DNA from: Chrysomallon squamiferum
Taxonomy: Eukaryota > Animalia > Mollusca
Direction: 5' to 3'
NCBI GenBank assembly: GCA_012295275.1
Contig: CM022667.1
Coordinates: 13,950,001 to 14,014,000, forward strand
Length of the DNA stretch: 64,000 nt
This document shows, piece by piece, positions 2,470 to 12,900 of the stretch (within the stretch, counting starts at the first letter, position 1; every line of letters starts with the position of its first letter). A program made the translations under genes and the position numbers. The notes under the pieces are model-generated. The model did not search any database, was not told where the DNA came from, and saw only the letters and a program-made list of their open reading frames with translations.

Positions 2470-4615
2470 ATGAAGTGTCTTTTAGCTGTGAGTATTTTCT
2501 CAGGTAAAGTATTATTTTTGTATTAGCATTTAAATATAAACACACATAATTACATTTCCGTCACATTATTCTTTATCAGAGCCAATAGTTTTGAACATTA
2601 AACACACAGGAAATTATTTTTCCATAACTTTACGAAATTTATTATGCAGAAACAACAGAATAAAAAATACTGTAGCGATAAAAGCTCTGTATAATTCTAC
2701 AACAGACAAATTAAATGTTATGCACTTTGCTACTTATACAACATCAAATTCAAGATCTAATTGTTCCGTTTTCAATTTCAGTGACTACGAATTAATTTTA
2801 TCTAATTTTTAGAATTTATATCAGATATGCTTATATACACATACACATACATGCACGCGATTTATTAATATGATAATACCAATAAGAATTTGATTAAATG
2901 TGATAATCATGATATATCGAATTTTCTGGCGTTTAGCCACAGTTCTTATGACAGCTTTGCAAATTTAGTGATGATTACAAATTCTGCAATTTCAGTAACA
3001 ATATACTTGGCTTTTTGTGAATGTCAAAAAGAGTTAGCGCGACGATGCTCAAAAACATATGAAAAGGAAAAACTATTAAAAGACATACCTGAAGTCGATA
3101 AATGCTAGTATGTTTTTTATTTATTTATTTATTTATTTACCTTTTAAAAATTATTCATATGTGAGTTTTTTCTGTTTGGTCGTACCAAACAATTTGTTCA
3201 GTTTCCCAGAAAAACGGCTATAGAATTGTTTTAATTCGTAACTATTAAATACAGTTTCGTTTTTCTGTTCATTTTATAGTTTAAAAATACAATATATATT
3301 ATTAAACTTCGATCTGGTCCAAAACTTCTAGTACTTTTATATTTAATTTGTTATTTTTATACATTTCTTTATTATTAAATTAGTAGTTATATATGACTGT
3401 GTAAAATATACAGGAATATATAACACTCTTTCAGAAGCAAAAATAAATTTTCGTTCAGAGAACGTTTCTGTCAGATCACAAACACTGAAAATATTCGTAT
3501 CTTTCAGTTACGGACAGAAAATGTTGAGCTGTTTGAGACAAGTTGGTTGTGCTAATATTCATGACGAAAGCTTTAAACTCAACGCGCTGAAAACATTCAT
3601 CAGAAACGACTGCAGTATGTTAGCTTATAAGTACAGCTGAATTCAAGTTTGAACATTGTCAAATATTTTTCTTTTTAAATTTTGAAAGTACAAGCCCGTT
3701 TTTACAGCATCCCTATCGATGTTGCATTCTTTATTGAATTCATTGTTGATCTAAAAAAAAACAAAAAAAAACAACAACAACCCCCCCCAAAAAAATGTGT
3801 CTTTGAATATGATAGGTTTAGCAAAAAGTATAATTATGTAGGTATAGATGTCAACTATAATCATTCAGCAGATATCATTATTATTTTTATTACGTTAATA
3901 CTGTCTATGTTAGGTACAGCAAAACATTTCTACTTTAACAAATTAATTGCTATAGTTTAACGATAATTTATGCAGTATAACAGTACACAGAGAGACCCTC
4001 TGTCATTTTTTTCTGTGAAAACAGCCGAATTTTCAACCCTCACTACCTTTCATAATAATACTACATTTACTGTGTGTGTGTGTGTGTGTGTGTGTGTGTG
4101 TGTGTGTGTGTGAATAGATATAATAAATTTATAATAATATTGCAGAAGCTGACGAAATCACTCTCGATCCGCAATCGGGCAAAGGTAAATTATACATATT
4201 TTACAATTAGCGGTCCTTAGTTTTTAATCTGTGATAATATTCTTTACTGAAGTCACTAAAATGGACTGAAGTAGAAACTATTTGCTCGTACGTACAAGTC
4301 AGCTAAATATTTTATTTCCTAATTATTCTTATCTTTCTAGCGACGAATCTTGATTGTAATAACAAATTATGACGTCACAGGAAACAGAATAAAGCATCCG
4401 AGTGATTTTGTAATTGATAGCGCCATCTTTAGTACTAATAAAAAAATAGTTCCCAAAATCTAATCTACAAGTTATGTCGATAGAAAAATGATCCACTAAA
4501 TATTAACCGATTCAATGGTTTTTTGTTTTGTTTTCCAGGTGAGCACCAGGCACGTAGTTCTCTGTTCTCGATATGGATTGGAGTGATAATCGCGATCGTC
4601 ATTTTAAACAAATAA
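2470..4615 (+). CDS. Member B: 122-aa secreted/GPI-type six-Cys protein
   Basis: Exons 2470-2503, 2996-3107, 3508-3614, 4146-4184, 4539-4615, all GT-AG and in frame: MKCLLAVSIFSVTIYLAFCECQKELARRCSKTYEKEKLLKDIPEVDKCYYGQKMLSCLRQVGCANIHDESFKLNALKTFIRNDCKADEITLDPQSGKGEHQARSSLFSIWIGVIIAIVILNK*. Confidence 0.9.
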
Positions 4616-5444
4616 AATGACATTCAACGAAACTTTTGTATCTAAGCCTTAAGGACAGTTAAAATAAAAAAAAAAAAAATAAAAAAAAAAAAAAAACTAA
4701 CTAACTAACTAAATAAATAAAATAAAAATAAGTAAATAACAAATAAACAAACAAATAAAGAAAGAAAGAAATAATAATAATAATAATAATAATAATAAAA
4801 TATATAGTAATAAAATAAAATTAGTTAAGAGTAATTAACTTATTGTCTATTATTATATATCCTCTTTATAAAGTTGTTATTTATCAACATAACATAAAAT
4901 GAAATAAAATATGAATAAGAAATTTAATCTTCGTATTATATATTTGGACAGATATCCCTTTAAAAATATATTATCGGTTTTTGCTGATTCTGTATTTAGA
5001 ATAACTTTTTTCTTTTTATTATTATTTTTTTTATCTTTGCTTTTGTCATTATATAATAGCTAAATGTTTAATTTAACTTACCTGGAAAACAAAATAACAA
5101 CGCTTATTTCAAAAAGTTATATAAAAAGGTTAAATACTTTGATAAATCTTTTACTTAATAATTTTTCTTCTATCACAGATTTCCTTGTAACATGTTTTGA
5201 CCGCATAAAATTAAAACAAAGTAATGCAGTTTTTTATTGTGTGTGTATGTGTTTGTAATAAATAATTATGTTCAAATATCATCTAGATCTTCTATTGTTA
5301 AAAAAAAAAAAATAATAATAAAATAATAATAAAAAATTAAATAATAAAAAGAAAAGTTGACAGCTGTCATCCAAATTTTTTAGTAGGTCTGCAGAAAATG
5401 TTCTTGATGGAGAAATGCTTTCAATATCTTTTAGATGAAAATAT

Positions 5445-9904: not shown

Positions 9905-12900
9905 ATGAAGTGTCTTTTTGCTATCGGTATTTTCTCGGGTAAAGTATAAATTCATATTAATTTAAACATAAACACACACAGAATTATATTTCCATAACTG
10001 TATTCTTTATCAGAAACAATAATAGTATAAAAAAATAATGAATTGTAATCCTCAATAGACAGTTGAAATCTTATTTTTAAGTTTACAATTTCAAATACTT
10101 TTATTATAATTTTGTCCTAATTCTTATAATTCATATTATAATAACACACAGTTTATCGATATGATAATACGTTATAATTAAGTTATCAAATTTGCCACTT
10201 TCAGTAATGATATACTTGTCTTCTTGCGAATGTCAAGTGGAAAAAGCAAAAAAGTGTGCAGAAGTATTTCAGAAGGAAAAAAGTATAAAGGATGTATCCC
10301 AAACTGATAAATGCTTGTATGTTTACGACAAAATTACTTTGTTTAATACTCTTTTACTTATATTTTTTCTTTCTTACTTATTTTTTTTTCTCCCCTATTT
10401 GGTCTTTCATATAGATTCTGGCTTCCAGAAAAACTTTGTTAGTTTGTATCTCAAAAGAGTTTCTTTATTTCTATAATTTCAGTTTATTCTCTCTCTCTCT
10501 CTCTCTCTCTCTCTCTCTCTCTCTCTCTCTCTCTCTCTCTCTCTCTCTCTCTCTCTCTCTCTCTCTCTCTCTCTCTCTCTCTCTCTATATATATATATAT
10601 ATATATTAAACTTTGATCTGGAAAATCCGGGTATCGAGATGACCTAGATACAAACCTTGCCGGGTAAACTTTCTAGTACTTTTTTTTAGATTTATTTTGT
10701 TATTTTTATACATTTATTTATTATTAAATTAGTAGTTATACATTACTGTGTACATATACAGAAATATATAACACTCTTTCAGAAGCAAAAATTAATTTTC
10801 ATTCAGAGAACGTTTCTGTCAGATAACAAACACTGAAAATATTCGTATCTTTCAGTTACGGAAAGAAAATGTTAAAGTGCCTGAGGGATCTAGGCTGTTC
10901 AGATTATCAAGAAGAGGAATATAGAATCGAGAAATTGAACAGATTCATTGATTCTGAATGCAGTATGTTTGCTTATATATATATACACACACATATGATA
11001 CTTCACATATTGATAAACACCAATTATAAAAATTCGGGACCCTCCGAATCCAATTCGCAACATAAGATAAAAATCCAATATCCGCAAGAATTTGCAGGAA
11101 ATATTTTGGAAATCGTATTAAATCGCTATTCCATTCCAAGACAAATCGATTCATAAATAGTGCAAAAGAAGTTGTGATCGTGTTCATTGTTTAAAATGTA
11201 GCCGTTACGGTAATTAGGAAACTAATTTTTATTTATTTATTTATTTATTTATTTATTTATTTATAAGTTGTTTTTTTTTTTTTTTTTATTTGTATTTAGT
11301 GACCTAAGTTCATTAATAACATTATTGCTGTAAAATAGTACTTGTTAGAAAGCATTTGAACTCTGCAATTTGACCCTTTTTAGAATTGGAGATGTAGCGC
11401 CATCACTAAGGGGTCGCCAGAACAATTGTTCCGCCACGTTACCAATAAAAGAAAAATGGCGGTGGCCAGTTATTTTTTGGGACTCTGCTCTTGAGCTGTT
11501 AAACAACGTTCTTATATAAATCTTGACAAAAAAAAAAAAAAAAAAAAATAACAAGTTAAAAACAAAACAGCAGTGAAACATAACTAATAAGAATGCAGAA
11601 TACATTATAGTTCGTGTCGCAAAAAGAGCAGTTTAAAATTTTCATTAAACTTTATTTTATGGAGACCATTTCGGTGCAGTTTAAAAATGGAACAATCGTA
11701 ATGCATAGGTAGCTCGACCAGTTAACATAAATATATTTTAAAACAAAGATGTAAAGAAACAAATATCCACTATTTGCCAGTTGTAATTAACAGTTTAATA
11801 AGATTCAGCTGTTAAAATGTTTAAAATTTAATTTAAATATATGTATACAGTGGTACCTCGAGATACGAGTGCTTTAACTTACGAGTGTTCTAAGTTACGA
11901 CTTTTCCGAGTTACGAGCAGCCGCCCGGTCGACTTTTCGGTTTGAGTTGCGAGCTAAAATCTGAGGTACGAGCTAGTTGGCGCCACGGACAATACAACAT
12001 CCGCCCAGCGTCCCGCGTATCACTTGTTTGCTTCACGCGGTTACGTCGCCGTTGTGTTATGCTCGCGTTTTGTGCAGTATTTTGCCACATTTCCATGGAT
12101 ACTAAGAATGTGAGTGCAAAGGACAGTGCTGAAAAGAAGAAGCGGATGATGTCCATTGAATTAAAGCTTGAAAACATAGAAAAACATGAGCGAGGTGTGC
12201 GTGTAGTCTACATGGGTAGGCAGTACGAGCGTAGCACCTCTACCACATGTACCATATAATGAAGTAGAAAGAGTCGATAAAGTCTATAACTCCAGCCAAA
12301 GGAGTTAAAATAATTTCTAGAATAACTTATGTCCATGAAAAGATGGAGAAACCCTAACCCTGTACAGTTTACAAAACCAATTTATTTCTTTACATTCTCT
12401 TTTATTTTATTTTTATACAATATTTGTCGTTTATACATACATTATTGTTATTTGTTACCAAAAATTGGGGTAGTTTTTGGGGTGCTGGAACGGATTAATG
12501 GCATTTCAATAAATTTCATTTGGGAAAACTGATTTGATATACGAGCAAATTTGAGTTACGAGCTCGGTTAAGGAACGAATTAAACGCGTAAGTCAAGGTT
12601 GCCACTGAATATATATATATATTGGAACGGTTGTTTTAGAATTCTATTATTGTGTGTATGTGTTTTCTGTACAAGTACATATAATAAATTTCTTATAATT
12701 TTGCAGAAAATGAAATCTCAGTGGGTCCGCAAGGGGGCAAAGGTAACTACAGTATTTTATATTAGCGTCTGTTATTTTTTGTTTGTTAAAAGCTTAATAT
12801 TCATTAATGAAATCAATAAAAATGAATAAAGTGGAAACTAAATATGTTAAGTTTACCTCCTAATTGTTCTTGTCCAGAAAAATTATGATGTCACTAAAAA

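Follow-up and report, generated by a model that had tools for sequence, protein, structure and literature searches.

Probable gene conversion behind patchy intron identity in a cluster of six-cysteine protein genes of Chrysomallon squamiferum

How can neighbouring paralogues have nearly identical intron sequences next to exons that have diverged far? The question is raised by a 64-kb window (the whole stretch of DNA analysed here) of the Chrysomallon squamiferum genome (CM022667.1), in which at least 10 intact genes for six-cysteine products of 120-123 aa are clustered. For two gene pairs, B/C and I/J, a sequence-only reading had proposed that exons diverge faster than flanking introns, as in venom gene families, owing to accelerated evolution of the mature domain and/or conversion of the introns.

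The cluster genes are spliced and expressed, as revealed by open spliced frames and by X7 and X9 RNA contigs. Gene B (2470..4615, + strand; 122 aa) has five coding exons (2470-2503, 2996-3107, 3508-3614, 4146-4184 and 4539-4615) with an open spliced frame and GT-AG sites, and its exon 3-exon 4 splice is present in an X7 RNA contig. Gene C (9905..13046, + strand; 121 aa; exons 9905-9938, 10205-10316, 10856-10962, 12707-12742 and 12970-13046) has a 5' untranslated exon ending at 9401, which is joined to exons 1 and 2 in X7 and X9 RNA contigs with loose ends. On the - strand lie gene D (21221..23484; 121 aa), three young copies of 122 aa each, namely E (26049..28285; GC donor after exon 4), F (31251..33521; its exon 1-exon 2 splice present in an X9 RNA contig) and G (36499..38764; introns 98-100% like those of F), gene H (42639..45350; 122 aa), with introns 91.5% and mature exons 77-80% like those of G, the mosaic gene I (46762..49135; 123 aa) and gene J (51124..53757; 120 aa). 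Gene K (58226..60009, + strand; 120 aa) is inverted relative to D. The window start cuts gene A, of which the last two exons remain (216..696, + strand), and the window end cuts a possible gene L at its first coding exon (63654..63687, + strand). The motif GAAATGACGTA is found upstream of every gene copy. The window is AT-rich (21-37% GC per 2-kb window) with many microsatellites; the B, C and I regions contain no unusual inverted repeats, except for one 18-bp hairpin in the intron-2 tract of B described below.

GPI-anchored proteins have a signal peptide, a small-x-small attachment triplet, a polar spacer and a terminal hydrophobic tail. All 10 proteins are predicted to conform to this rule: N-terminal hydropathy was 2.1-3.1, the C-terminal hydrophobic tail scored 2.3-3.0, and a triplet (GKG, SKG, SKA, SRA or NEG) was found 24-27 residues from the end in each of them. 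The mature proteins have six cysteines, none adjacent. AlphaFold models of single exons contained helices only (pLDDT 66-69, pTM 0.30-0.38). The products are predicted to be helical surface proteins with disulfide bonds and a GPI anchor.

Alignment of B with C confirmed that intron 2 ends in 97 nearly identical nt (3411-3507 versus 10759-10855), for which about four differences had been estimated and exactly 4 were found (3414, 3445, 3453 and 3477). It also confirmed the 15 of 35 identical residues in exon 3. The tract extends over 3311..3531 in B (+ strand), covering the second half of intron 2 plus 18 nt at the start of exon 3, and by alignment over 10615..10879 in C (+ strand), with 92.6% identity over 216 columns. 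The best 150-column non-coding window matched at 142/150 positions, versus 76% elsewhere (permutation p=0.0002). Intron identities from gapped alignments are biased upward, a shuffled intron giving 68.6 +/- 2.1% with the same aligner. The four intron ends of B and C showed 60, 96, 67 and 57% identity, so that only one of the four is conserved and the other three lie at background level. At the same end of intron 2, I/J reach 78% identity, and comparisons of either B or C with either I or J give 65-71%; since it is alike only in B/C, there is no family-wide constraint on it. The proposal that introns outlast exons thus held for short near-identical patches, but not for introns as a whole, whose conservation is patchy and pair-specific.

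The I/J tracts extend over 48666..49462 in I (- strand) and, by alignment, over 53215..54050 in J (- strand). They comprise an upstream stretch (49275-49462 in I, 94%) and a second stretch (94%) that runs from exon 1 through intron 1 into the 27 signal-coding nt at the start of exon 2, stopping 2 nt short of the first mature cysteine codon. The best window matched at 192/200 positions versus 81% elsewhere (permutation p=0.0002). Within the tract, the described intron-1 block (48715-48940 in I, 53267-53490 in J) was recovered with 214 of 222 aligned columns matching and 6 gap columns, as were the 14 of 35 identical residues in exon 3. This block, however, adjoins exon 2 and not exon 3, whose flanking introns are just 79-83% alike.

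Gene I resembles J at its 5' end, and the end of its intron 4 matches E-H at 97-100%. The latter similarity belongs to a tract common to E, F, G and H (46725..47180, - strand) that covers exon 5 together with the adjoining 3' part of intron 4, with 96.8% identity to G over 433 columns (G/I discrete-tract permutation p=0.0002), rising to 100% in the final 97 nt of the intron. Across a wider 545 columns gene I showed 34-35 differences to E, F and G, 24 of them private to I, versus 102/495 to J. Beyond this tract gene I is again J-like, which implies two breakpoints. The mature-domain tree groups I with J (bootstrap 93), whereas the tree of intron 4 and exon 5 groups I with E-H (91), and each data set rejects the tree of the other (AU p=9e-6 and 2e-7, respectively). 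Among the other pairs, D 21067-21602 and K 59621-60207 are 95% alike; D and K have an identical exon 5 and mature exons that are 59% alike. Permutation for discrete tracts gave p=0.0008 for D/K, 0.038 for G/H and 0.48 for the young pair E/F. The tracts are 3-7% diverged, about 10 times the allelic difference of 0.6%.

Silent sites separate young exons under selection from old exons next to converted introns. The mature exons of B and C showed a dS of 1.2-1.4 (95% lower bound 0.7-0.8) and a dN of 0.47-0.48, whereas divergence in the tract is 0.04-0.06; dN/dS is 0.33-0.39, below 1 at p<0.01. As multi-hit codons inflate NG86 dS, these values were cross-checked by likelihood and by silent differences in codons for the same residue. 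Such differences were enriched in mature exons compared with the remaining codons in B/C (13/27 versus 3/36, p=0.0004), G/I (7/18 versus 2/38, p=0.003) and G/H (8/39 versus 2/45, p=0.04). For I/J, dS and dN of the mature exons are about equal at 0.53 (dN 0.53-0.55), the likelihood lower bound for dS being 0.25 against 0.04-0.06. The same-residue count revealed no excess of mature silent differences in I/J (4/26 versus 3/32, p=0.69) or D/K (4/20 versus 8/43, p=1.0), so part of the exon divergence of these two pairs may be real amino-acid acceleration. Across the whole tree, dS is 0.32-0.36 for exon 5 and 3.6-3.7 for the mature domain. Family-wide omega of the mature domain is 0.71-0.80, near neutrality, with about 80-84% of its sites at omega=1 (M1a); the mature domain is weakly constrained.

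Because the near-identical patches are pair-specific, the mature exons carry high silent divergence and the trees conflict along gene I, we infer that gene conversion very probably caused the identity of the intron patches. The cluster would hold copies of a single gene that differ in age, some old and some young, between which conversion probably copied stretches of 200-600 nt, overwriting patches and leaving out the six-cysteine mature exons, which would thereby retain their old divergence. Of the two causes originally offered, conversion is favoured by the discrete, pair-specific tracts and the gene I trees. Accelerated evolution of the mature domain is mostly unsupported: dS exceeds dN in B/C and about equals it in I/J, and together with the short discrete tracts this is the pattern that the sequence-only reading itself had named as favouring conversion alone over selection. 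What survives of it is the weak constraint, the replacement divergence of I/J relative to its introns and the E versus F/G comparison considered below.

The opposite view, that the pairs are young, that their introns give the true age and that venom-type positive selection split the mature exons, is quite unlikely as a general account. It draws on I/J, where dN amounts to roughly double the divergence seen in the introns on either side of exon 3 (0.19-0.25 for introns 2-4), and on E versus F/G with 11 replacement and 0 silent changes (likelihood p=0.020-0.023), although E-F and E-G are one comparison rather than two and Fisher tests were not significant (p=0.13 with silent sites as the reference, and 0.09 and 0.05 with introns). 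With one tree, site tests gave p=0.028 and 0.007 for M8 vs M8a, with about 25% of sites at omega 2.2-2.8, and p=0.067 and 0.015 for M2a vs M1a, but 0.14 and 0.065 for M8 vs M7. With a separate tree per exon, p rose to 0.19 and 0.09 (M2a) and 0.09 and 0.04 (M8). These codon models were run with our own script, with branch lengths for M7 and M8 briefly optimised and site posteriors from naive empirical Bayes, from which no site is claimed. The signal of positive selection is therefore weak, with site-test p values of 0.007-0.19 that fade once recombination is allowed. Moreover, pN exceeds pS in just 5 of 45 gene pairs, all three allelic differences seen in exons 3-4 of B are silent, the gene I mosaic is left unexplained, and the B/C silent sites and omega refute acceleration as the sole cause in that pair. 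As an added effect it may act in I/J and E-G.

The analogy with venom families does not carry over either. Snake-venom phospholipase A2 genes have introns and UTRs conserved throughout and a KA close to or above KS (PMC7285919). The cluster resembles them in that non-coding and signal-peptide parts are more alike than mature-coding exons, and differs in its patchy, pair-specific identity, B/C omega and GPI-like tail. Conotoxin superfamilies, described as mostly three-exon genes with long transposon-rich introns in passages that mention no intron conservation (PMC10561478), likewise encode small precursors built on a cysteine framework, conserved in the signal and variable in the mature part, whereas the cluster genes are split into five coding exons by short introns and encode a membrane-anchor tail but no propeptide. 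The predicted C-terminal hydrophobic tails of all 10 proteins argue against a soluble venom product, and the cluster genes do not look like venom genes.

It appears very unlikely that purifying selection maintains the B/C stretch as an RNA structure of the intron, with hairpins of which the last lies over the 3' splice site. Fold z-scores of -4.40 (B) and -2.98 (C) were obtained, 7 of the 8 B/C differences in 3370-3507 are unpaired in the fold of B, and at 85% identity 3410-3454 has no match in the X1 contigs besides B and C, the depth equalling B plus C. Our own scan with 30 shuffles, however, gave -3.4 and -1.9, and 4 of 116 intron windows reached -3 (F and G, near-copies of E, and windows masked by more than 15% being left out), two of these lying in B without conservation in C. 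No change is compensatory, and one disrupts a base pair. Rfam gave no match at gathering level in the window (best a weak GAIT, 22.2 versus 37 bits, E=0.1), and the tract is longer than the folded stretch, beginning upstream of it and continuing into exon 3. For the I/J block and for exon 5 the fold z-scores are ordinary (-0.85, -0.19 and +1.31), so RNA structure fails to explain the other tracts.

An assembly artefact, with one copy's sequence pasted into another, is hardly credible even in a tandem array with microsatellites and with complete identity of I/G at the end of intron 4 and of D/K over exon 5, since in the B region, to which the read check applies, run X1 (which may be the window's own sample) contains the B and C tract versions in separate contigs, run X2 from another study has the B version joined to B exons 1-2 in a contig spanning 2420-3514 and a short contig with the C letters. 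Gene I, for its part, carries private differences across its tract.

If conversion shaped the introns, what kept it out of the mature exons? By analogy with human red/green opsins, selection for distinct binding surfaces may do so, a possibility that we hold at somewhat less than even. A circular-shift test for avoidance of the mature core by the tracts gave p=0.63, 0.27, 0.43, 0.52 and 0.045 in five pairs (about 0.24 combined by hand). Alternatively, tracts could land randomly and stop at dense mismatches. In clustered protocadherins, whose proteins are unrelated to those described here, conversion reportedly keeps paralogues uniform in some parts, with divergent islands left between them (Noonan 2004). 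Red/green opsins are described as tandem paralogues whose introns are homogenised and whose divergence, silent sites included, peaks on a functional exon (Teshima-Innan peak; PMC3924837). There, the pattern is proven by orthologues and two causal residues are known, whereas here a similar pattern is read from paralogues only, in at least 10 copies with sporadic conversion. For copepod GOT1 paralogues, likewise partially homogenised with islands of divergence remaining, clustered mismatches are noted to be able to halt conversion without selection (PMC3728101); the GOT1Sd/Sr islands are introns and not exons, and the proteins are unrelated to those of this cluster.

Homologue searches all used single exons of 22-41 aa, which are weak queries. 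Alignments of exon 3, exon 2 and exon 5 gave no match to longer proteins among 378, 2685 and 186 candidates, and an exon 3 profile gave none at E<=0.001 among 1.84 billion representatives. Pfam revealed no match for exon 3; a weak match to the Zap1 zinc-finger in 1 of 10 exon-2 members was dismissed. The best PDB hits (E 0.74 and 1.4) are at chance level for such queries, and two attempts with single exons in the ESM Atlas, with recognition below threshold, gave no usable match. In metagenome contigs, 0 of 61 pattern matches were confirmed and no DNA match was found; these searches with single exons and metagenome contigs thus revealed no orthologue from another species. A literature search for a tandem family of GPI-anchored six-cysteine proteins found no match, which does not make the family unpublished. 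Ly6/uPAR three-finger proteins have 8-10 cysteines, a CCxxxxCN end and a beta fold; the six non-adjacent mature cysteines and the predicted helical exon fragments do not fit this description. Small helical GPI proteins of the Neuritin or DUF19 type are presumably alike in size, six cysteines, helical fragments and GPI-like tail, and presumably differ in cysteine spacing; single exons gave no Pfam match to them.

Judged from anatomy, the products are most likely recognition or adhesion ligands. A fuller picture, which we consider rather unlikely, is an uncharacterised GPI-anchored six-cysteine recognition family in which conversion would swap the framework (signal region, introns and anchor exon), selection would keep the binding domains distinct under the shared GAAATGACGTA promoter motif, and the cluster would form a small polymorphic immune or self-recognition array. 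More generally, introns that outconserve exons need not imply acceleration of the venom type, and in this cluster the two can be told apart by silent sites and by trees. Since its 64 kb contain three young copies as well as five old pairs, selection and mismatch density would become testable as barriers to conversion, given orthologues and alleles. Conversion is a known process; the protein family is without match in the searches run, and a ligand for it would be new biology.

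The window holds a tandem cluster of ten intact genes (B-K, lettered in window order; B, C and K on the + strand, D-J on the - strand), together with the two final exons of A and the first exon of L. The coding exons of B-K measure 34, 109-115, 107, 36-39 and 68-77 nt; the introns are in phases 1, 2, 1, 1, and the products are 120-123 aa long. The predicted proteins comprise a signal peptide, a mature domain (exons 2-3), a linker (exon 4) and a hydrophobic tail (exon 5). Six cysteines are invariant in the mature domain (C-x7-C-x18-C-x8-C-x5-C-x20-C; K has x17), and a small-x-small triplet lies 24-27 residues before the C-terminal end in 10/10 proteins. 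By the usual rule for GPI attachment, signal, triplet and tail of the predicted B-K proteins fit GPI anchoring. Structure predictions for single exons were helical at low confidence. RNA contigs, from two runs of one study, contained splices of B exon 3 to exon 4, of a C untranslated exon to exon 1 and on to exon 2, and of F exon 1 to exon 2. E-H have a GC donor after exon 4 (26902, 32103, 37341 and 43054, - strand), and exon 4 of D seems to be preceded by an AAG acceptor. Searches with single exons as queries revealed no homologues of the B-K proteins; no literature on this family was found either, which is weak evidence, and the family is apparently undescribed.

Each of B-K carries the motif RAAATGACGTA in gene orientation, 199-1104 nt ahead of its start codon, and L has it upstream as well (1997, 9314, 23804, 28657, 33927, 39170, 45808, 49644, 54851, 58027 and 63276), with an extra copy at 51737. 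The 12 matches compare with 0.22 expected, paralogous copies not being independent, and the motif is present even where the gene flanks fail to align. It looks like a composite site of the ETS/NFAT plus CRE type, which suggests shared inducible control of the cluster genes. Orphan pieces are also present: exon 1 copies that retain promoter-side flanks (29140, 34409, 39653 and 40857, - strand), a partial exon 2 (38212-38235), an inverted exon-5-like piece (55958-56061) and a stop-containing exon-2-like piece (about 60838-60880). They are debris from partial duplications. Transposon-like repeated pieces lie at 11900-12600, 14200-15160 and 62000-62630, one of them within C's intron 3; between C and D, direct and inverted repeats are nested in a block (15330-19470).

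The sequence-only reading had described introns more alike than exons, and its counts for B and C were reproduced: 4 differences in the last 97 nt of intron 2, and 15/35 identical residues in exon 3. Identity over the last 97 nt of introns 1, 2, 3 and 4 is 60, 96, 67 and 57%, and unrelated pairs mostly give 53-65%. By alignment, this near-identical tract spans about 3311-3531 in B, including 18 nt of exon 3. Contigs of sequencing run X1 contain both the B and the C version, and in X2, a run from another study, B's version is joined to B's first exons. In I/J, whose exons are closer, the intron-2 end reaches only 78% identity, so it is under no family-wide constraint. For the B/C mature exons, likelihood gave dS 1.23-1.43 (95% lower bound 0.7-0.8) and dN 0.47-0.48, with an omega of 0.33-0.39 that is below 1 at p<0.01; the tract, by comparison, has diverged by 0.042-0.055. 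Where B and C encode the same residue, their codons show a silent difference at 13/27 positions in the mature exons and at 3/36 elsewhere (p=0.0004). Since silent sites are far diverged in the mature exons and little in the tract, B and C are old copies sharing a young tract.

That the tract was kept as a structured RNA element instead of by conversion is improbable. It folds with z of -4.4 in B and -3.0 in C, 7/8 differences within the folded stretch fall at positions unpaired in B, and its last hairpin covers the splice acceptor; however, z for C was only -1.9 in our own scan, two further B windows fold equally well yet are not conserved in C (4/116 windows at <= -3), none of the differences is compensatory, Rfam gave no match at threshold, and neither the I/J block nor exon 5 is structured. 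In the hairpin itself (3484-3507), the acceptor of intron 2 in B and C is paired with a hexamer that lies 12 nt upstream; two more hairpins precede it.

For I and J, the noted near-identical intron-1 block (48715-48940 and 53267-53490), with 214/222 identities, and the 14/35 identical residues in exon 3 were likewise recovered. Comparing these two overstates the contrast, because introns 2-4 are only 79-83% alike. From the upstream region the tract runs through exon 1 and intron 1 into exon 2, where it takes in the 27 nt that code for the signal and breaks off 2 nt short of the codon for the first mature cysteine. The following 66 nt hold 23 mismatches, and identity resumes at the last cysteine and where intron 2 begins. 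In the mature exons dS and dN are both about 0.53, the lower bound of 0.25 for dS exceeding the block's 0.04-0.06.

At the end of intron 4, I matches E-H at 97-100% and J at 63%; in exon 3 it matches J at 61% and E-H at 49-52%. Beyond the E-H-like part, J-like sequence resumes; I is no pasted copy, because it carries 24 private differences in 545 columns. The tree of the mature domain was rejected by the alignment of intron 4 and exon 5 (AU p=9e-6), whose own tree was in turn rejected by the mature-domain data (AU p=2e-7). D and K, inverted to each other and about 35 kb apart, have an identical exon 5 inside a 489-column tract at 95%, and mature exons at 59%. G and H diverge by 8.5% in introns and 21% in mature exons. 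K looks mosaic inside the mature domain (58638-59129): exon 2 is nearest D (63%; E-H reach 46-50%), exon 3 is nearest E-G (68-71%; D reaches 55%), and exon 3 data rejected the exon-2 tree (p=0.035). Tree-wide dS rose from 0.32-0.36 in exon 5 through 1.5-1.7 in the signal and 3.6-3.7 in the mature domain to 4.4-6.1 in the linker. Across all copies of B-K, silent divergence of exon 5 is about 10 times below that of the mature domain, even where flanking introns fail to align, as in C vs I with 91% identity in the exon and 54% at the intron end. Exon-limited conversion or nucleotide-level constraint may account for it; exon 5 showed no unusual RNA fold.

The mature domain is under loose constraint: its one-ratio omega of 0.71-0.80 does not differ from 1, and 16-20% of its sites are conserved. 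In 5/45 pairs pN is higher than pS. Site tests under two codon models (p values paired accordingly) gave, on one tree, 0.067/0.015 for M2a vs M1a, 0.14/0.065 for M8 vs M7 and 0.028/0.007 for M8 vs M8a, and with a separate tree per exon 0.19/0.09 (M2a) and 0.09/0.04 (M8). Among the young copies, all 11 changes between E and F/G are replacements and none is silent; likelihood gives a p of about 0.02, Fisher tests 0.05-0.13. The allelic differences found in B exons 3-4, seen in one RNA contig and in one case also in X1, were 3/3 silent. For some branches positive selection is plausible, not established. Same-residue silent counts showed no excess in the mature exons of I/J (4/26 vs 3/32) or D/K (4/20 vs 8/43), so real amino-acid acceleration is possible in these two pairs. 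The sequence-only reading is confirmed in what it observed and half right in its interpretation: of the two processes proposed, conversion agrees with the patchy tracts and the tree conflict, and acceleration is mostly unsupported.

Directly shown are the patches, the silent divergence, the conflicting trees and the splicing of B, C and F. Conversion between neighbouring or inverted copies probably overwrote stretches of 200-600 nt, long enough ago for the tracts to be 3-7% diverged, about 10 times the allelic difference of 0.6%. With less confidence, selection for distinct binding surfaces may have eliminated events that would overwrite a mature exon. Alternatively, dense mismatches alone could stop conversion at the mature exon, as PMC3728101 points out. 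A test that tracts avoid the mature core beyond chance was significant in G/H only.

The cluster works like the opsin case in PMC3924837. It is unlike snake phospholipase A2 genes, for which PMC7285919 gives introns conserved throughout and KA near or above KS, and unlike conotoxin genes, whose introns are described in PMC10561478 as long and transposon-rich. The probable process behind the pattern of the cluster is a known one, and the gene family apparently undescribed.
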